DNA of 64,000 nucleotides, from the NCBI RefSeq assembly GCF_003018255.1, contig NZ_CP027440.1; one strand, written 5' to 3'. The DNA is from Escherichia coli. GTDB taxonomy: Bacteria; Pseudomonadota; Gammaproteobacteria; Enterobacterales; Enterobacteriaceae. Shown one piece after another: positions 8,117 to 37,798 of the stretch (its first letter is position 1; every line of letters begins with the position of its first letter). A program made the position numbers and the translations under genes. The notes under the pieces were generated by a model. That model did no database searches. It was given only the letters and a program-made list of their open reading frames with translations, and had not been told where the DNA came from.

Positions 8117-8584
8117 ATGATTAAACGCGTATTGGTTGTTTCAATGGTAGGTCTGTCTCTTGTCGGTTGTGTTAATAACGACACCCTGTCAGGGGATGTT
8201 TATACCGCTTCTGAAGCGAAACAAGTACAGAATGTCAGCTATGGCACCATCGTTAACGTACGTCCGGTACAGATTCAGGGCGGTGATGATTCCAACGTTA
8301 TCGGCGCAATTGGCGGTGCTGTTCTTGGTGGTTTCCTGGGGAATACTGTTGGTGGCGGAACCGGGCGTTCTCTGGCTACTGCTGCAGGCGCTGTTGCAGG
8401 TGGCGTAGCCGGTCAGGGCGTACAGAGTGCAATGAACAAAACGCAGGGTGTCGAGCTGGAAATTCGTAAAGACGATGGTAATACCATCATGGTGGTACAG
8501 AAACAAGGCAACACTCGTTTCTCTCCGGGCCAACGTGTCGTACTGGCCAGCAATGGCAGTCAGGTGACCGTTTCCCCGCGCTAA
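8117..8584 (+). CDS. slyB: outer membrane lipoprotein SlyB (glycine-zipper)
   Basis: 155 aa ORF with signal peptide, lipobox LVGC and Gly-rich GAIGGAVLGGFLGNTVGGGTG segment. Confidence 0.93.
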   Translation: MIKRVLVVSMVGLSLVGCVNNDTLSGDVYTASEAKQVQNVSYGTIVNVRPVQIQGGDDSNVIGAIGGAVLGGFLGNTVGGGTGRSLATAAGAVAGGVAGQGVQSAMNKTQGVELEIRKDDGNTIMVVQKQGNTRFSPGQRVVLASNGSQVTVSPR

Positions 8585-8593
8585 ATAAGTTTG

Positions 8594-8620
8594 CGTGTGG
8601 TCAGGTTACTGACCACACGC
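8594..8620. terminator. bidirectional stem-loop between slyB and slyA
   Basis: 11 bp perfect inverted repeat GCGTGTGGTCA/TGACCACACGC in the 46 bp convergent gap. Confidence 0.7.
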
Positions 8621-8630
8621 CCCCTTCATT

Positions 8631-9065
8631 TCACCCTTTGGCCTGTAACTCAATGATATTATGCTCAAGTTTTGCGATGAGCTTAATCAGTTGTTCCAGT
8701 TCCTCTGCGGAGATGCCATGTAAAATTTCCGCGCGGGTTTTGTTAATAACAGCTTCCATTTCGCTGATCAGCGGCTCTGCCTTTTCCGTCAGTTTAATAC
8801 GTTTAGCCCGACGATCGCTGGCACAAGTTTGACGCGAAATTAACCCTTTTTCTTCCAGTTGGTCCAGAGTACGGACCAGTGATGGCTGCTCGATGCCAAT
8901 CGCTTTTGCCAGTTGAATTTGCGACTGGTCTGGAGGTAACTGATGGATATTGTGTAACGTAACCCAATGGGTTTGTGTTAACTCCAGCGGTTTCAGGCGA
9001 TGGTCTATCAGAGCACGCCATATGCGCACCAACCGTGCCAGATCAGAACCTAGTGGCGATTCCAA
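8631..9065 (-). CDS. slyA: MarR-family transcriptional regulator SlyA
   Basis: ORF track 146 aa from ATG at 9071 ([11 protein letters not shown]...); I recall a 144 aa annotated form starting two codons later at TTG; either way clearly SlyA. Confidence 0.9.
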
Positions 9066-9504: not shown

Positions 9505-10362
9505 ATGTCAATTAAAACAATTAAGTATTTCTCAACAATCATTGTAGCGGTAGTTGCGGTTCTTGCCGGATGGTGGCTGTGGAATTATTACATGCAATCT
9601 CCGTGGACACGCGACGGGAAAATACGCGCAGAACAGGTTTCTATCACCCCTCAGGTGTCGGGACGTATTGTTGAGCTGAATATAAAAGACAACCAACTGG
9701 TTAACGCGGGGGATCTTCTGCTCACGATCGATAAAACGCCCTTTCAGATCGCCGAGCTGAACGCACAGGCTCAGTTGGCGAAAGCGCAATCTGACCTCGC
9801 AAAAGCCAATAACGAAGCGAATCGTCGTCGTCATCTCTCACAAAATTTTATTTCTGCCGAAGAACTCGATACCGCTAACCTCAATGTTAAAGCGATGCAG
9901 GCCAGTGTTGATGCCGCACAGGCGACGCTGAAACAGGCACAATGGCAACTGGCGCAAACGGAAATTCGCGCCCCGGTGAGTGGATGGGTGACTAACCTCA
10001 CTACCCGCATCGGCGATTACGCTGACACCGGGAAACCGCTGTTTGCCCTTGTCGACAGCCACTCGTTTTACGTCATTGGTTATTTTGAAGAAACCAAGTT
10101 GCGCCATATCCGCGAAGGTGCACCAGCACAAATTACCCTCTATAGTGATAACAAAACGTTACAGGGTCACGTTTCCAGTATCGGTCGGGCGATTTATGAT
10201 CAGAGCGTTGAAAGTGACTCAAACCTTATTCCGGATGTGAAACCTAACGTCCCCTGGGTTCGCCTCGCCCAACGAGTTCCCGTCCGCTTTGCGCTGGATA
10301 AAGTCCCAGGCGATGTCACGCTGGTGTCGGGCACCACCTGTAGTATTGCCGTAGGTCAATAA
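9505..10362 (+). CDS. ydhJ: membrane fusion protein (HlyD/AaeA-like efflux adaptor)
   Basis: ORF track 299 aa from 9463; internal Met [24 protein letters not shown] gives 285 aa with an N-terminal TM anchor; stop TAA overlaps the ydhK ATG in TAATG. Confidence 0.85.
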
Positions 10363-12374
10363 TGAACGCATCGTCATGGTCCTTGCGCAATTTGCCCTGG
10401 TTCAGGGCCACGCTGGCGCAATGGCGTTATGCGTTACGCAATACCATTGCCATGTGTCTGGCGCTGACGGTTGCCTATTATTTAAATCTGGATGAACCCT
10501 ATTGGGCGATGACCTCGGCTGCCGTGGTTAGCTTTCCCACCGTTGGAGGTGTCATCAGCAAAAGCCTCGGACGCATCGCTGGCAGTTTGCTCGGAGCCAT
10601 TGCGGCACTGCTTCTTGCCGGACATACGCTCAATGAGCCGTGGTTTTTTCTTTTGAGCATGGCGGCGTGGCTTGGCTTTTGTACCTGGGCCTGTGCGCAC
10701 TTCACGAATAATGTCGCGTATGCATTTCAACTGGCGGGCTACACAGCTGCCATCATCGCCTTTCCGATGGTTAATATTACTGAGGCCAGCCAGCTGTGGG
10801 ATATCGCTCAGGCGCGCGTTTGCGAGGTGATTGTCGGTATTTTGTGCGGCGGCATGATGATGATGATCCTGCCGAGCAGTTCCGATGCTACAGCCCTTTT
10901 AACCGCATTGAAAAACATGCACGCCCGATTACTGGAACATGCCAGTTTACTCTGGCAGCCTGAAACAACCGATGCCATTCGTGCAGCACATGAGGGGGTG
11001 ATTGGACAGATACTGACCATGAATTTGCTCCGTATCCAGGCTTTCTGGAGCCACTATCGTTTTCGCCAGCAAAACGCACGCCTTAATGCGCTGCTCCACC
11101 AGCAATTACGTATGACCAGTGTCATCTCCAGCCTGCGACGTATGTTGCTCAACTGGCCCTCACCGCCATGTGCCACACGAGAAATTCTCGAACAGCTGCT
11201 GACGGCGCTCGCCAGTTCGCAAACAGATGTTTACACCGTCGCACGTATTATCGCCCCGCTACGCCCGACCAACGTCGCCGACTATCGGCACGTCGCCTTC
11301 TGGCAGCGACTACGTTATTTTTGCCGCCTTTATCTGCAAAGTAGTCAGGAATTACAACATCTGCAAAGCGGTGTGGATGATCATACCAGACTTCCACGGA
11401 CATCCGGCCTGGCTCGTCATACCGATAACGCCGAAGCTATGTGGAGCGGACTGCGTACATTTTGTACGTTGATGATGATTGGCGCATGGAGTATTGCTTC
11501 GCAATGGGATGCCGGTTCCAATGCATTAACGCTGGCAGCAATTAGCTGCGTACTCTACTCCGCCGTCGCAGCACCGTTTAAGTCGTTGTCACTGCTGATG
11601 CGCACGCTGGTGTTACTTTCGCTATTCAGCTTTGTGGTCAAATTTGGCCTGATGGTCCAGATTAGCGATCTGTGGCAATTTTTACTGTTTCTCTTTCCAC
11701 TGCTGGCGACGATGCAGCTTCTTAAATTGCAGATGCCCAAATTTGCCGCATTGTGGGGGCAACTGATTGTTTTTATGGGTTCGTTTATCGCTGTCACTAA
11801 TCCCCCGGTGTATGATTTTGCTGATTTTCTTAACGATAATCTGGCAAAAATCGTTGGCGTTGCGCTGGCGTGGTTAGCGTTCGCCATTTTGCGTCCAGGG
11901 TCGGATGCTCGTAAAAGCCGTCGTCATATTCGCGCGCTGCGCCGGGATTTTGTCGATCAACTTAGCCGCCATCCAACACTGAGTGAAAGCGAATTTGAAT
12001 CGCTCACTTATCATCACGTCAGTCAGTTGAGTAACAGCCAGGATGCGCTGGCTCGCCGTTGGTTATTACGCTGGGGTGTAGTGCTGCTGAACTGTTCTCA
12101 TGTTGTCTGGCAATTGCGCGACTGGGAATCGCGTTCCGATCCGTTATCGCGAGTACGGGATAACTGTATTTCACTGTTGCGGGGAGTGATGAGTGAGCGT
12201 GGCGTTCAGCAAAAATCACTGGCGGCCACACTTGAAGAATTACAGCGGATTTGCGACAGCCTTGCTCGTCATCATCAACCTGCCGCCCGAGAGCTGGCGG
12301 CAATTGTCTGGCGGCTGTACTGCTCGCTTTCGCAACTTGAGCAAGCACCGCCGCAAGGTACGCTGGCTTCTTAA
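10362..12374 (+). CDS. ydhK: FUSC-family (AaeB-like) efflux/inner membrane protein
   Basis: 670 aa multi-TM ORF; start overlaps the ydhJ stop by 1 nt, suggesting translational coupling. Confidence 0.88.
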
Positions 12375-12896
12375 TTACTTAATTACACCACAGGCATAGC
12401 GTTCACCGCCACCGCCCAGCGGTTTAGGTTGATCGGACATATTATCGCCGCCAACGTGGACCATCAGTGCTTTGTCTTTGACTTCATCCAGTGATTTCAG
12501 ACGAGGCGCGATGACGGCATCGGTAGCTTTGCCGTCATTATTGACGACCAGTGCAGGCAGATCGCCTAAATGCCCGGCACCTTCTGGCCCTTCATGTTTA
12601 CCGGTATTTTGTGGATCAAGATGCCCGCCTGCGGATTCTGCGGCGCTGGCTTTGCCATCTTTGGTGGCTGGCTGGCAGCTTCCTTTGGCATGAATATGGA
12701 AGCCATGTTCACCGGGAGGTAATGCTTTCAGATCGGGCGAAAACTCCAGACCTTTATCGGTTTCAGTAATGGTGACGCTACCAATTGACTGCCCAACCCC
12801 TTGCGACGTGACGAGGTTCATCTCGACTTTTTCACTGGCAGCTTGTGCGCCGGTCGCAACAACCAGCGCCAGAATGGCCAGACTAAAACGTTTCAT
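12375..12896 (-). CDS. sodC: periplasmic Cu,Zn superoxide dismutase
   Basis: ORF track 190 aa; internal start MKRFSLAILALVVATGAQA (signal peptide) gives 173 aa; His-rich copper-site motifs HGFHIHAKGSC and GGGGERYACGVIK. Confidence 0.92.
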   Translation of the reverse strand: MKRFSLAILALVVATGAQAASEKVEMNLVTSQGVGQSIGSVTITETDKGLEFSPDLKALPPGEHGFHIHAKGSCQPATKDGKASAAESAGGHLDPQNTGKHEGPEGAGHLGDLPALVVNNDGKATDAVIAPRLKSLDEVKDKALMVHVGGDNMSDQPKPLGGGGERYACGVIK

Positions 12897-12976
12897 AAGA
12901 CCTCCGTTCATTGTGCATTCCTGAATAAGTGTAAACCAGTGACACATTTTTGAACGGCAGCTATTCCTAAAAGTGC

Positions 12977-13873
12977 TTACGGTACGTCGTAACCTAGTGC
13001 CGCTTTACGGATACGGAACCATTGTTGACGGGTCATTTTCAGTGTTTCTGCTTCGACTGCTGCCCGTACGCGCTCAATTTTACCTGAGCCGATAATTGGC
13101 AGCGGCTGCGACGGTAAACGTAATACCCAGGCGTAAACCACCTGTTCAATCGAGCCCGCGTTTAACTCCTCTGCCACCACAGCCAGTTCATCACGCAGCG
13201 GCTGGAAATAATCATCATTAAACAGACGACCACCACCAAGGCAGGACCACGCCATCGGACGAACACGCAGTTGTTGCAGTTGGTCGAGCGTGCCATCCAG
13301 CAGTAACGGCTGATGTACCGGGGATATTTCCACCTGATTAGTGGCAAGGGTAAACGGCAGGCGTGATTGCAAAAGCGCAAATTGCACAGGCGTAAAGTTC
13401 GATACGCCAAAATGACGCACTTTGCCGCTCTGATGCAGATGTTTAAACGCGTCCGCCACTTCATCGGCATCCATTAACGGGTCTGGTCGGTGGATTAACA
13501 GCAGATCCAGATGATCGGTCGCGAGATTAATTAGCGACTGTTCGGCGCTCTTAATGATGTGATCGCGGTCAGTGATGTAATGACCAATGACGTTTTCTTC
13601 ACGCGCGGTCGTCGCGATACCGCATTTACTGACGATTTCCATCCGTTCACGCAGGTGAGGTGCCAGTTTCAACGCCTCGCCAAACGCCGCTTCGCACTGA
13701 TAGCCACCATAAATATCAGCATGGTCCACGGTGGTCACGCCGAAATCCAGATGCTCTTCAATAAAACTGACCAGCTGGCGGGCGGACATATTCCAGTCCA
13801 TCAATCGCCAGTAGCCCATCACAAAACGGGAAAACTCCGGGCCTTGCGGCGCAATAGTAATACGCTGAACCAT
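12977..13873 (-). CDS. ydhF: aldo-keto reductase family oxidoreductase
   Basis: 298 aa ORF; recognised as YdhF. Confidence 0.88.
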   Translation of the reverse strand: MVQRITIAPQGPEFSRFVMGYWRLMDWNMSARQLVSFIEEHLDFGVTTVDHADIYGGYQCEAAFGEALKLAPHLRERMEIVSKCGIATTAREENVIGHYITDRDHIIKSAEQSLINLATDHLDLLLIHRPDPLMDADEVADAFKHLHQSGKVRHFGVSNFTPVQFALLQSRLPFTLATNQVEISPVHQPLLLDGTLDQLQQLRVRPMAWSCLGGGRLFNDDYFQPLRDELAVVAEELNAGSIEQVVYAWVLRLPSQPLPIIGSGKIERVRAAVEAETLKMTRQQWFRIRKAALGYDVP

Positions 13874-25528: not shown

Positions 25529-25693
25529 GCCTTATCTCCACCTCTTCGCGTCATTACGCGATATTCATTAAAGTGGCGAAAGCATGACAGCAATCACAAA
25601 AAAATGAAAATAACAAAAAGAGAAAACACTTTTGCCATTTTGCTAACAAACAGGAAGGAGATGCGAGGGAGAACGCGCTCCCTCGAGAGGAAA

Positions 25694-25783
25694 TCAGTGC
25701 AGCGCGGCAGTCAAACCCACGGCCACGATCAAACCGAGGACGATAATCGTTGTTACCAGTGAAAATTTAAGGTCGGTGCTCAT
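25694..25783 (-). CDS. ynhF: 29 aa hydrophobic small membrane protein
   Basis: Manual translation of the minus strand: ATG...TGA encoding MSTDLKFSLVTTIIVLGLIVAVGLTAALH; below the ORF-track size cutoff; matches the small protein YnhF I recall between ydhP and purR. Confidence 0.7.
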   Translation of the reverse strand: MSTDLKFSLVTTIIVLGLIVAVGLTAALH

Positions 25784-26021
25784 CAAGTTTTCTCCTTTTT
25801 TATTACCACACAAAAAGTGATATTACGCATTTTTACACACTGTGATGAAAAAATCTCCCGTCATTTATAATGATAAGTGTTTTTACCACTTCCCCTTTTC
25901 GTCAAGATCGGCCAAAATTCCACGCTTACACTATTTGCGTACTGGCCATTGACCCCTTCCTGACGCTCCGTGTCGTTTTTCCGGCGTACCGCAACACTTT
26001 TGTTGTGCGTAAGGTGTGTAA

Positions 26022-26037
26022 AGGCAAACGTTTAGCT
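26022..26037 (+). promoter_or_regulatory. PurR operator (pur box) O1 in the purR leader
   Basis: AGGCAAACGTTTAGCT matches the pur-box core GCAAACGTTT; purR is autoregulated by two downstream operators. Confidence 0.7.
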
Positions 26038-26081
26038 TGCGATTTTGCAGGAGCTGAAGTTAGGGTCTGGAGTGAAATGGA

Positions 26082-27107
26082 ATGGCAACAATAAAAGATG
26101 TAGCGAAACGAGCAAACGTTTCCACTACAACTGTGTCACACGTGATCAACAAAACACGTTTCGTCGCTGAAGAAACGCGCAACGCCGTGTGGGCAGCGAT
26201 TAAAGAATTACACTACTCCCCTAGCGCGGTGGCGCGTAGCCTGAAGGTTAACCACACCAAGTCTATCGGTTTGCTGGCGACCAGCAGCGAAGCGGCCTAT
26301 TTTGCCGAGATCATTGAAGCGGTTGAAAAAAATTGCTTCCAGAAAGGTTACACCCTGATTCTGGGCAATGCGTGGAACAATCTTGAGAAACAGCGGGCTT
26401 ATCTGTCGATGATGGCGCAAAAACGCGTCGATGGTCTGCTGGTGATGTGTTCTGAGTACCCAGAGCCGTTGCTGGCGATGCTGGAAGAGTATCGCCATAT
26501 CCCAATGGTGGTGATGGACTGGGGTGAAGCAAAAGCTGACTTCACCGATGCGGTCATTGATAACGCATTCGAAGGCGGCTACATGGCCGGGCGTTATCTG
26601 ATTGAACGCGGTCATCGCGAAATCGGCGTTATCCCTGGCCCGCTGGAACGTAACACCGGCGCAGGCCGCCTTGCCGGTTTTATGAAGGCGATGGAAGAAG
26701 CGATGATCAAAGTGCCGGAAAGCTGGATTGTACAGGGTGACTTTGAACCTGAATCCGGTTATCGCGCCATGCAGCAAATACTGTCGCAACCGCATCGCCC
26801 TACTGCCGTCTTCTGTGGTGGCGATATCATGGCAATGGGCGCACTTTGTGCTGCTGATGAAATGGGTCTGCGCGTGCCGCAGGATGTTTCGCTGATCGGT
26901 TATGATAACGTGCGCAACGCCCGCTATTTTACGCCAGCGCTGACCACGATCCATCAGCCAAAAGATTCGCTGGGCGAAACGGCGTTCAACATGCTGTTGG
27001 ATCGTATCGTCAATAAACGCGAAGAACCGCAGTCCATTGAAGTGCATCCGCGCTTGATTGAACGCCGCTCCGTGGCTGACGGCCCGTTCCGCGACTATCG
27101 TCGTTAA
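26082..27107 (+). CDS. purR: purine repressor (LacI family)
   Basis: 341 aa [31 protein letters not shown]...; recognised as PurR. Confidence 0.95.
26110..26125 (+). promoter_or_regulatory. PurR operator (pur box) O2 inside the purR coding region
   Basis: GAGCAAACGTTTCCAC at codons 10-15 of purR; second pur-box match. Confidence 0.65.
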
Positions 27108-34754: not shown

Positions 34755-34831
34755 GCGTCCGTAGCTCAGTTGGTTAGAGCACCACCTTGACATGGTGGGG
34801 GTCGGTGGTTCGAGTCCACTCGGACGCACCA
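34755..34831 (+). tRNA. valW: tRNA-Val (anticodon GAC), tandem copy
   Basis: 77 nt copy 4 bp downstream of valV; differs in acceptor stem (TCCG...CGGA vs TTCA...TGAA) and T-stem with compensatory changes; encoded CCA. Confidence 0.95.
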
Positions 34832-34938
34832 GATTTTCTTAATCTGGTCTTCTCCTTTTTCCCTCTGTTTCTTCTCTATATCCAATACGTTAAAAGATTT
34901 ACACTGTCTTCGTATGCGTTATCAGAAGGAGAATCGCT

Positions 34939-35244
34939 ATGGCAACTTTGTTACAACTTCATTTTTCTTTCAATGGCCCATTTGGCGACGCAATGGCTGA
35001 GCAGCTTAAACCGCTTGCTGAGTCGATTAATCAGGAACCTGGTTTTCTGTGGAAGGTATGGACAGAAAGTGAAAAGAACCACGAAGCCGGTGGGATCTAC
35101 CTTTTTACTAATGAAAAAAGCGCCCTTGCCTATCTGGAAAAACATACTGCCCGACTGAAAAATCTCGGCGTTGAGGAAGTTGTCGCCAAAGTTTTCGATG
35201 TCAATGAGCCACTTAGTCAAATCAATCAGGCAAAACTCGCCTGA
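34939..35244 (+). CDS. ydhR: small monooxygenase-like protein
   Basis: 101 aa ORF with RBS AGAAGGAG; recognised as YdhR. Confidence 0.85.
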
Positions 35245-35369: not shown

Positions 35370-36980
35370 ATGAAAAAAATTGCTATTGTGGGTGCCGGGC
35401 CTACGGGGATCTACACCTTATTCTCGCTTCTACAGCAACAAACTCCACTTTCTATTTCTATCTTCGAGCAGGCTGATGAAGCCGGTGTCGGGATGCCATA
35501 CAGTGATGAGGAAAACTCAAAAATGATGCTGGCAAATATTGCCAGTATTGAAATACCGCCGATTTATTGTACGTATCTCGAATGGCTACAAAAGCAAGAA
35601 GCCAGCCATCTCCAGCGTTATGGCGTTAAAAAAGAAACCTTGCACGATCGTCAGTTTTTACCGCGAATTCTGCTGGGCGAATATTTCCGCGATCAATTTT
35701 TACGATTAGTAGACCAGGCACGACAGCAAAAATTTGCAGTGGCTGTTTATGAATCATGCCAGGTTACCGATCTGCAAATTACAAATGCTGGCGTCATGCT
35801 CGCTACAAATCAGGATTTACCCAGCGAGACGTTTGATTTAGCGGTGATCGCCACGGGTCACGTCTGGCCTGATGAAGAAGAAGCAACCCGAACGTATTTT
35901 CCCAGCCCGTGGTCAGGCCTGATGGAAGCAAAGGTCGATGCGTGTAACGTGGGTATTATGGGAACATCCTTGAGCGGACTGGATGCGGCAATGGCAGTGG
36001 CTATTCAGCATGGTTCGTTCATTGAAGATGATAAACAACACGTCGTTTTTCACCGCGATAACGCAAGTGAAAAGCTAAATATTACGTTGATGTCGCGTAC
36101 GGGTATTTTACCCGAAGCCGATTTCTATTGCCCTATTCCCTACGAGCCCTTACACATCGTCACCGATCAAGCATTAAATGCTGAGATTCAAAAAGGCGAA
36201 GTGGGCCTTTTGGATCGGGTATTTAGATTGATAGTAGAGGAAATCAAATTTGCTGATCCAGACTGGAGCCAACGCATAGCCTTAGAAAGCCTGAATGTCG
36301 ATTCCTTTGCTCAAGCCTGGTTTGCCGAGCGCAAACAACGCGACCCATTCGACTGGGCAGAAAAAAATCTCCAGGAAGTCGAACGCAATAAACGAGAAAA
36401 ACATACTGTTCCCTGGCGTTATGTCATTCTGCGCCTGCATGAAGCCGTACAGGAAATTGTTCCTCATCTGAATGAACACGACCATAAACGGTTCAGTAAA
36501 GGCCTTGCCCGGGTTTTCATCGATAATTATGCGGCAATCCCTTCAGAGTCTATTCGTCGACTACTGGCCTTACGTGAAGCGGGAATCATTCATATTCTCG
36601 CCCTCGGTGAAGACTACGAAATGGAAATTAATGAGTCGCGCACCGTCCTGAAAACGGAAGACAATAGCTACTCGTTTGACGTTTTTATTGATGCCCGTGG
36701 GCAGCGTCCGCTTAAAGTGAAAGATATTCCTTTCCCTGGACTACGCGAACAATTACAGAAAACAGGGGATGAAATCCCTGATGTTGGCGAAGATTATACG
36801 CTACAGCAACCCGAAGAAATTCGTGGGCGCGTAGCGTTCGGCGCGTTGCCCTGGTTGATGCACGACCAGCCATTCGTACAGGGACTTACGGCATGTGCAG
36901 AAATTGGTGAGGCGATAGCTCAGGCGGTCGTAAAGCCTGCATCCCGTGCTCGTCGGCGTCTTTCGTTTAATCAAATGTAA
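35370..36980 (+). CDS. ydhS: FAD/NAD(P)-binding protein
   Basis: 536 aa ORF with N-terminal dinucleotide-binding fingerprint IAIVGAGPTG; recognised as YdhS; start may differ by a codon or two. Confidence 0.85.
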   Translation: MKKIAIVGAGPTGIYTLFSLLQQQTPLSISIFEQADEAGVGMPYSDEENSKMMLANIASIEIPPIYCTYLEWLQKQEASHLQRYGVKKETLHDRQFLPRILLGEYFRDQFLRLVDQARQQKFAVAVYESCQVTDLQITNAGVMLATNQDLPSETFDLAVIATGHVWPDEEEATRTYFPSPWSGLMEAKVDACNVGIMGTSLSGLDAAMAVAIQHGSFIEDDKQHVVFHRDNASEKLNITLMSRTGILPEADFYCPIPYEPLHIVTDQALNAEIQKGEVGLLDRVFRLIVEEIKFADPDWSQRIALESLNVDSFAQAWFAERKQRDPFDWAEKNLQEVERNKREKHTVPWRYVILRLHEAVQEIVPHLNEHDHKRFSKGLARVFIDNYAAIPSESIRRLLALREAGIIHILALGEDYEMEINESRTVLKTEDNSYSFDVFIDARGQRPLKVKDIPFPGLREQLQKTGDEIPDVGEDYTLQQPEEIRGRVAFGALPWLMHDQPFVQGLTACAEIGEAIAQAVVKPASRARRRLSFNQM

Positions 36981-36985
36981 AGCTA

Positions 36986-37798
36986 TCAGCACTCAACAAA
37001 CTGATGCTGTTCATTAAGGCGATAGCGGACTCCGGCTCGAATATTGTTTTCACCTTCAATGGCGACGGCGAAGCGAACTCTTTCGCCGTCATGATATGCC
37101 AGTGCGGCGCTTCCCCCTGGCCCGAGAATAATTGAGTCGACCACGCCCGTGCTCACTATTGTTGAATCTTCACCGCTGGCAATGATGTGTACATTGTCGC
37201 CGCTGTTGGCAATTCTGGCGTTTGCGCCAAAGCTGGCGATTTGCACCAGGTCACCATTACTGGCGACATGACATCGTTCACCCAATGTACAAACGCGTAC
37301 TCGCATTCCGGTATTCGCAATCCGACTGCTATCTCCAGCGCTGCTTATCCGCGAAGAATTACCGGTTACAGCAACCCGTGCGCGTTCACCGGAGCTGCCA
37401 ATGTGACTGTTAAAGCCGACACTTCCAATCCGCACGCTATAACCCATACTGGCAATTTGCGCGGCATACCCAGCGGTTGCGATTCTGGCATTATCCTCAC
37501 AACAGCCGATGCGAGCATGATCGTCGCTGCGGGCAAACTGACTGCAAAATGCTCTCTCTCCGGGATCTGTGGCCAGTTTTTGCATAGAAGAAACTTCCTG
37601 ATGCGCGAAGTTTTCATCCGCCAGCCATTTTTTCCACGCATACTCAACCAGACTCTCCGCCCAGTCCGTATATCCTTCCTCAATCAGTGCATGATGAATA
37701 TCGGCATAACTACCGCCGCGTGGGAAATGGCGCAGAAACCAGCGATACATCACCGCTCCGATACGCCATTCTCGCAGGTCTGCTCGTGTAATGATCAT
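36986..37798 (-). CDS. ydhT: beta-solenoid-like nonapeptide-repeat protein, last gene of ydhYVWXUT
   Basis: 270 aa ORF; residues 93-227 form 15 consecutive 9-residue repeats (e.g. DNARIATAG, NSSRISSAG, DSSRIANTG, ANARIANSG); recognised as YdhT. Confidence 0.85.
   Translation of the reverse strand: MIITRADLREWRIGAVMYRWFLRHFPRGGSYADIHHALIEEGYTDWAESLVEYAWKKWLADENFAHQEVSSMQKLATDPGERAFCSQFARSDDHARIGCCEDNARIATAGYAAQIASMGYSVRIGSVGFNSHIGSSGERARVAVTGNSSRISSAGDSSRIANTGMRVRVCTLGERCHVASNGDLVQIASFGANARIANSGDNVHIIASGEDSTIVSTGVVDSIILGPGGSAALAYHDGERVRFAVAIEGENNIRAGVRYRLNEQHQFVEC

Follow-up and report, generated by a model that had tools for sequence, protein, structure and literature searches.

The convergent ydhK-sodC junction of Escherichia coli: abutting stop codons, probable Rho-dependent termination and a one-sided overlap of 3' transcripts

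The ydhK and sodC genes meet at abutting stop codons

We analysed the point at which the ydhK and sodC genes converge in a 64-kb stretch of the Escherichia coli chromosome, referred to here as the window. The ydhK gene closes the ydhIJK operon as its last gene and encodes a 670-residue transporter of the FUSC family, and sodC encodes a 173-residue periplasmic Cu,Zn superoxide dismutase with the C-terminus ACGVIK. On the + strand the junction reads ...GCT TCT TAA/TTA CTT AAT TAC ACC..., the slash separating the stop codon of ydhK from that of sodC. A first-pass annotation, made from the sequence alone, had described the two stop codons as touching with no intergenic space. This was confirmed by the sequence, by its open reading frames (ORFs) and by RefSeq annotation, both of strain DETEC-S792, to which the tested kilobase is 100% identical (identity to most other E. 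coli is ~98.5%), and of K-12. The annotated stop-to-stop gap is 0 nucleotides (nt) in DETEC-S792 and also in K-12 MG1655 (last base of ydhK at 1724133, sodC at 1724134 to 1724655); the two coding sequences (CDSs) adjoin without any shared base. The ydhK gene has the same length in the window and in K-12 (b1645). The mechanical ORF of sodC extends upstream to an ATG at 12947, the annotated start being at 12896. Coordinates of the features discussed below are collected in Table 1.

Table 1. Features at the ydhK-sodC junction, in window coordinates
Feature	Position	Strand	Description	Basis
ydhK CDS	10362..12374	+	Stop codon TAA at 12372-12374	ORF list and RefSeq annotation of the identical strain DETEC-S792
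sodC CDS	12375..12896	-	Stop codon TAA, read as TTA on the + strand at 12375-12377	ORF list and annotation
sodC transcript 3' extension	12135..12374	-	Antisense to the final ~200-240 nt of ydhK	C/G profile, PMC7815308 and antisense read counts
Rho termination region inside ydhK	~11769	+	605 nt before the ydhK stop	Mapped via the equal ydhK length in K-12
10-bp hairpin GATGACGGCA / TGCCGTCATT	12510..12539	+	In ydhK-sense RNA, inside sodC antisense	Fold and weak consensus-scan match
Tandem octamer CTTAATTA x2 (12370-12385) plus C (12386)	12370..12386		Contains both stop codons	Sequence and strain alignment

Of 5426 complete E. coli genomes, 5425 have the locus. The kilobase 11900-12900 has an identity of at least 99% in only four of these 5425, the others falling at 95-99%; the window therefore represents a rare allele or lineage in this region. 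The window SodC carries DEVKDK at a position where K-12 SodC presumably has DEIKDK.

Spacer-free convergent pairs are common in E. coli

To place this arrangement among its peers, we collected the convergent CDS pairs annotated across the window and two arbitrary 50-kb regions of K-12, 25 pairs in 164 kb in total. Gaps were 43, 46, 0, 50, 145, -4, 39, 40, 5 and 63 nt in the window; 48, 199, -4, 47, -4, 136, 42 and -30 nt in K-12 200-250 kb; and -16, 208, 55, 47, -4, 42 and 75 nt in K-12 2700-2750 kb. The gap is zero or negative in seven of the 25 pairs (0, -4 four times, -16 and -30), and an eighth pair has 5 nt. The abutment of ydhK and sodC is therefore not unusual: convergent pairs without room for an intergenic terminator are common in E. 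coli, at roughly a quarter. The purR/punR, dkgB/yafC, yafS/rnhA and yfiM/kgtP pairs, each with a 4-nt overlap, show the same spacer-free tail-to-tail packing. In contrast to such overlapping pairs, E. coli ydhK and sodC overlap by 0 bases, and their 0-nt register coincides with a tandem octamer of variable copy number.

The ydhK-sodC pair is also one of 165 convergent excludons present in at least 50% of 58 MG1655 transcriptomes (ExcludonFinder, NAR 2025, PMC12288877, Table 1). That table contains all eight pairs of our sample whose gap does not exceed 5 nt and omits all 17 of the wider ones. The listing therefore reflects geometry, and carries no functional information.

Two further convergent pairs in the window leave no room for a terminator and are present in the same table: purR/punR, whose CDSs overlap by 4 nt at 27104-27107, and ydhS/ydhT, which are separated by 5 nt at 36980-36986.

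Tight packing of ydhK and sodC is conserved across Enterobacteriaceae

A species scan with SodC, taking one genome per species, yielded 80 loci from Enterobacteriaceae. In all 80, ydhK converges on sodC, with a stop-to-stop distance between -25 and +14 nt. The first-pass annotation had also stated that there is no room for an intergenic terminator, and this is borne out well beyond E. coli, given a gap of 0 nt here and of at most 14 nt in 80 of 80 species. The distance is 0 nt in Escherichia, most Citrobacter and Superficieibacter, +1 nt in three species and +14 nt in Pseudescherichia vulneris. In most relatives the two CDSs overlap, by 4 nt (one metagenome-assembled genome), 8 nt (Kosakonia, Pseudocitrobacter, Franconibacter and others), 11 nt (Phytobacter), 22 nt (Enterobacter, Leclercia and Lelliottia) or 25 nt (Salmonella).

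These registers differ modulo 3 between genera. The conserved end of sodC (ACGVI(K)) is therefore fixed, and the unconserved tail of YdhK drifts by small indels onto whichever stop codon the sodC antisense strand offers. Tight packing of the two genes is ancient and predates the divergence of the Enterobacteriaceae genera; the exact 0-nt register does not. This persistence is the sole non-trivial feature of the junction.

A tandem octamer at the junction varies in copy number

Both stop codons lie within a tandem array of the octamer CTTAATTA. Among E. coli strains the array has two, three or four copies, corresponding to spacers of 0, 8 or 16 nt, and most strains have two. Three copies and an 8-nt spacer were found in MCJCHV-1 and OkiPb01713, both aligned with the window and K-12 and with annotated gaps that agree. 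Strain SCU-387 has four copies and a 16-nt spacer, and strain N54 probably also has four. Three copies are also present in at least six further genomes of the 80-90% identity band; the three-copy counts are minimum numbers, as two-piece repeat alignments confound BLAST identity bands. The flanking single-nucleotide polymorphisms differ between MCJCHV-1 and OkiPb01713, which suggests that the three-copy array arose by independent events, or recurrent slippage. The extra copies leave both proteins unchanged, since the first TAA of the array ends ydhK and the last TTA ends sodC. This copy-number variation among E. coli is a small new point.

We considered the repeat as the origin of the 0-nt gap and rejected this, since Citrobacter has the 0-nt gap without the repeat and other Escherichia have it with an imperfect repeat. 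The octamer instead looks like a consequence of the junction, a coincidence of the sodC end ...ATT AAG TAA with the ydhK end TCT TAA that now permits slippage.

A hypothetical one-copy array would delete the sodC stop codon and fuse SodC to a 109-residue ORF at 12019-12348 on the - strand. This ORF, opposite the 3' portion of ydhK and in the frame into which sodC would read upon loss of its stop, most likely just follows from the codon composition of ydhK.

Rho-dependent termination on the sodC strand maps inside ydhK

Folding and a consensus scan found no canonical hairpin with a U-tract 3' of the ydhK stop or of the sodC stop, and an intergenic bidirectional terminator is likewise absent: the junction is AT-rich, without spacer or stem, and none of the 80 species has a spacer of more than 14 nt. 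Published data point to Rho. Adams et al. 2021 (PMC7815308, supplementary file 2) carried out DirectRNA-seq with and without bicyclomycin (BCM), and list a Rho termination region at K-12 position 1723937 on the - strand, classed as 'antisense ydhK' and located 197 nt past the sodC stop. Upstream and downstream reads at this region were 74 and 14 in untreated cells and 29 and 28 with BCM (Rho score 5.10, p 2.8e-5; PMC7815308). The position maps to ~12178 in the window. Our C/G profile placed a rut-like, C-rich and G-poor bubble at 12239-12135 on the - strand, peaking at 12209-12150, which was the strongest in the downstream RNA, with C/G of up to 2.56 at +166 to +225 past the sodC stop; the published Rho region lies within it. 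On the sodC strand, then, BCM-sensitive read-through is found together with a C-rich, G-poor untranslated stretch upstream of the termination zone. This resembles the other Rho regions of Adams et al. in its BCM-sensitive drop in coverage ~200 nt after the stop codon, in C-rich untranslated RNA. It differs from them in that the rut-like stretch and the termination zone lie wholly within the CDS of the opposite-strand neighbour, the 3' end being placed at the resolution of a region.

Bubbles with C>G at this location occur in 65-84% of the 80 species. We did not accept this conservation as evidence of selection for a rut site, with which it is only compatible, since similar bubbles recur farther along the antisense strand of ydhK.

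On the + strand, a Rho termination region is listed within ydhK itself, at K-12 position 1723528 (Rho score 3.17, p 8.8e-6; PMC7815308). Supplementary file 2 of the same study lists no BCM-sensitive region 3' of the ydhK stop, where low expression may hide one. The excess of C over G downstream of the ydhK stop is mild.

Transcript overlap at the junction is one-sided

We used the stranded RNA-seq of Huang et al. 2020 (PMC7373196, Table S1c), which gives sense and antisense reads per million (RPM) for the wild type and for RNase III mutants, to compare the two directions. Sense and antisense RPM for ydhK were 17.7 and 21.0 in the wild type, 9.55 and 11.56 in rnc-14 and 7.07 and 8.43 in rnc-38; those for sodC were 66.4 and 1.51, 30.3 and 0.66, and 16.1 and 1.49, respectively (PMC7373196). 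In the wild type, antisense coverage over sodC therefore stands at ~2% of sodC sense and at roughly a third of the average ydhK density. If the 21.0 RPM antisense to ydhK are divided by the sodC sense density (66.4 RPM per 0.522 kb), they correspond to ~165 nt of coverage at the sodC level, which would fit the ~197 nt to the Rho region if these reads are sodC read-through.

In the available data the overlap is strongly one-sided, and consists mainly of RNA of sodC polarity entering ydhK. Given the Rho region within ydhK, upstream of its stop, and the scarcity of sodC antisense reads, many ydhK transcripts in LB may therefore stop short of the junction. The first-pass annotation had argued that the convergent transcripts must overlap in their 3' regions. 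An overlap of this kind is supported by the ExcludonFinder entry, by the Rho region 197 nt inside ydhK and by the ydhK antisense reads; reciprocity is not, with sodC antisense at only ~2%.

Published evidence for overlap is stronger at another convergent pair of the window, slyB/slyA (8584-9065, 46-nt gap). A Rho termination region antisense to slyA is located on the + strand at K-12 1720658 (window ~8899; Rho score 9.1), RNase III duplexes of up to 930 reads are abundant in the slyB-slyA spacer and the slyA interior (Huang Table S3), and wild-type slyA antisense (49.6 RPM) exceeds sense (42.6 RPM).

An ordinary compact junction best explains the data

We interpret the locus as an ordinary compact convergent junction in which Rho ends each RNA inside the neighbouring gene or its own, and in which the overlap is incidental to geometry; we give this reading a probability of about 0.75. 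In the absence of a spacer, neither the ydhK nor the sodC unit has an intergenic terminator, and each RNA polymerase would continue beyond its own stop and transcribe the antisense strand of the neighbour. Because RNA beyond the stop is untranslated, Rho could load on C-rich stretches and terminate transcription, and would be the main terminator in both directions. The sodC transcript would acquire a 3' extension of ~165-200 nt, complementary to the 3'-terminal part of the ydhK CDS, whereas ydhK transcripts would terminate partly within the gene, with a minor fraction entering sodC. Head-on polymerase collision could add to this when both units are active, although the published collision model was built on hairpin-containing intergenic elements (bioRxiv 10.1101/2022.10.23.513370). 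The overlap would then be an outcome of the geometry, not something shown to set the level of either product.

The arrangement is also that of the bidirectional terminators of Ju et al. 2019 (SEnd-seq), as they are cited in bioRxiv 10.1101/2022.10.23.513370: in both, two converging polymerases have to be stopped. As cited there, however, those terminators are intergenic hairpins in spacers of ~40-60 nt, the spacing typical of most convergent pairs in the window, whereas ydhK and sodC have neither a spacer nor a shared hairpin.

Several points weigh against this interpretation. The expression data all come from conditions in which ydhIJK is poorly expressed, and an internal antisense promoter could supply part of the ydhK antisense reads. 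The Rho coordinates derive from 800-nt windows, one condition and low read counts, and no 3' end of sodC or ydhK appears in the Term-seq lists of Adams et al. (supplementary files 1 and 3; PMC7815308). The sole ydhK RNase III duplex among those listed by Huang et al. lies ~1.2 kb upstream of the junction, and p19-captured double-stranded RNA is moderate, at 43-103 RPM for ydhK and 8-57 RPM for sodC (PMC7373196). Finally, selection for coupling, and not inertia, could be what has kept the junction spacer-free across the 80 species.

Available evidence does not favour regulatory coupling

Such selection is the core of the alternative that survives best, although we consider it unlikely: that the junction has been kept because overlap makes the two units antagonistic, through head-on collision or through pairing of the sodC extension with the 3' coding part of ydhK RNA and cleavage by RNase III, so that the efflux pump would be damped when sigma-S induces sodC, or vice versa. 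In Salmonella, ydhIJK is an efflux operon for fusaric acid and aromatic carboxylates, divergent from slyA, and SlyA represses it ~19-fold in vitro, salicylate relieving the repression (PMC6401476); SlyA binds the slyA-ydhIJK region of E. coli as well (PMC5797941). One study treats ydhK as a member of the sigma-E regulon and sodC as a member of the sigma-S regulon, and in its time course the rise came at 1 h for ydhK and at 3 h for sodC (PMC2685091). This staggered rise would suit antagonism, as would detection of the overlap in at least 50% of the 58 transcriptomes, a sodC extension spanning ~200 nt of ydhK, a tight junction retained in all 80 species, and some p19-captured double-stranded RNA reads from both genes.

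However, all of our sampled pairs with gaps up to 5 nt appear in that same excludon list, which makes the listing functionally uninformative, and we read sense levels and sense/antisense ratios as unresponsive to loss of RNase III, the ydhK antisense/sense ratio being 1.18 in the wild type, 1.21 in rnc-14 and 1.19 in rnc-38. Among the coordinate-sorted duplexes listed in Table S3 (PMC7373196), none is located at the junction, and the next after that of ydhK is in nemR. The natural variants with 8- or 16-nt spacers carry no obvious cost, though the overlap would persist in them. Our literature search found no paper testing ydhK-sodC coupling, nor any perturbation or reciprocal expression data for the pair. 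No support for regulatory coupling emerged: because the ratios are unchanged in the rnc mutants and no junction duplex is among those listed, the available evidence does not favour interference or antisense control, and the overlap would have no regulatory role. Like other excludons, ydhK and sodC are convergent neighbours with overlapping 3' transcripts, and the pair is named as such (PMC12288877). Unlike an excludon in the strict sense, of which mutual exclusion is the defining property, it is known by transcript overlap alone, and the rnc-mutant data give no hint of exclusion.

A more specific version is a long shot. The Rho-terminated 3' extension of sodC might serve as an antisense RNA that targets the 3' end of ydhK in cis, which would explain the retention of the spacer-free junction across Enterobacteriaceae; induction of SodC by sigma-S or oxidative stress would then shut down YdhIJK (or the reverse, via polymerase collision), with the octamer tuning the register.

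Candidate intrinsic terminators are weak and poorly conserved

It is also quite improbable, in our view, that intrinsic terminators within the neighbouring CDSs set the 3' ends with Rho as a backup. The candidate in the ydhK direction is the 10-bp stem of Table 1, which begins 136 nt beyond the ydhK stop, is followed by UUAUU and is marked at the same spot by the consensus scan. In the sodC direction, a 7-bp GC stem (UGCCGCC...GGCGGCA) lies ~80-100 nt past the stop. A minority of species also show weak recurrent hairpins, at ~+150-160 and +275-283. The U-tracts, however, are poor or absent, as in the AUUGACGA next to the 10-bp stem. Only the window and one other locus of our set (L004) have that stem in good form, synonymous and amino-acid changes having degraded it in other species; at best it would be a weak pause or termination site confined to Escherichia. 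With the candidate restricted to Escherichia, we rejected a conserved ydhK intrinsic terminator inside sodC. Across 78 species, terminator-like hairpins numbered 0.08 per locus in the sodC direction and 0.22 in the ydhK direction, compared with 0.17 in the control interior, and so were not enriched. Termination on the sodC strand is BCM-sensitive, and the Term-seq tables noted above place no 3' end here. The supplements of SMRT-Cappable-seq hold no sodC or ydhK entry, and Rfam covariance models gave nothing near the junction at gathering score, nor at E<=1 in 11700-13000.

Least probable of all is that there is almost no RNA-RNA overlap, with ydhIJK weakly transcribed and terminated within ydhK so that the sodC extension and a full-length ydhK mRNA rarely occur together in one cell: the upstream Rho region in ydhK, the low read counts (17.7 RPM of ydhK sense over 2 kb, 1.5 RPM of sodC antisense) and SlyA repression in Salmonella agree with it, but ExcludonFinder sees overlap in most transcriptomes, and the data used were all obtained under non-inducing conditions, ydhIJK being inducible and functional in Salmonella.

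The abutment, the transcript overlap and Rho termination on the sodC strand are already known, from RefSeq annotation, the excludon catalogue and the table of Adams et al., respectively, and on present evidence the junction matters little. It serves as a clean, conserved example of the roughly one quarter of E. coli convergent pairs that end transcripts inside the CDS of the neighbour. Coupling of SodC and YdhIJK, if true, would add one validated case to the excludons, few of which have been functionally tested in E. coli, and the natural 0-, 8- and 16-nt spacer variants offer comparison material.

Other RNA family matches in the window

Elsewhere in the window, the Rfam antisense family HPnc0260 matches at 34793-34955 on the - strand (112 bits), opposite the second tRNA-Val (34755-34831, + strand) and the start of ydhR. 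This is probably a tRNA-complement artefact of the family and not a real antisense RNA. The Rfam small RNA family STnc550 has a full-length match of 388 bits at 25691-26081 on the - strand, which overlaps the small-protein gene cydH (25694-25783, - strand); this 'sRNA' family therefore corresponds to a small-protein mRNA.

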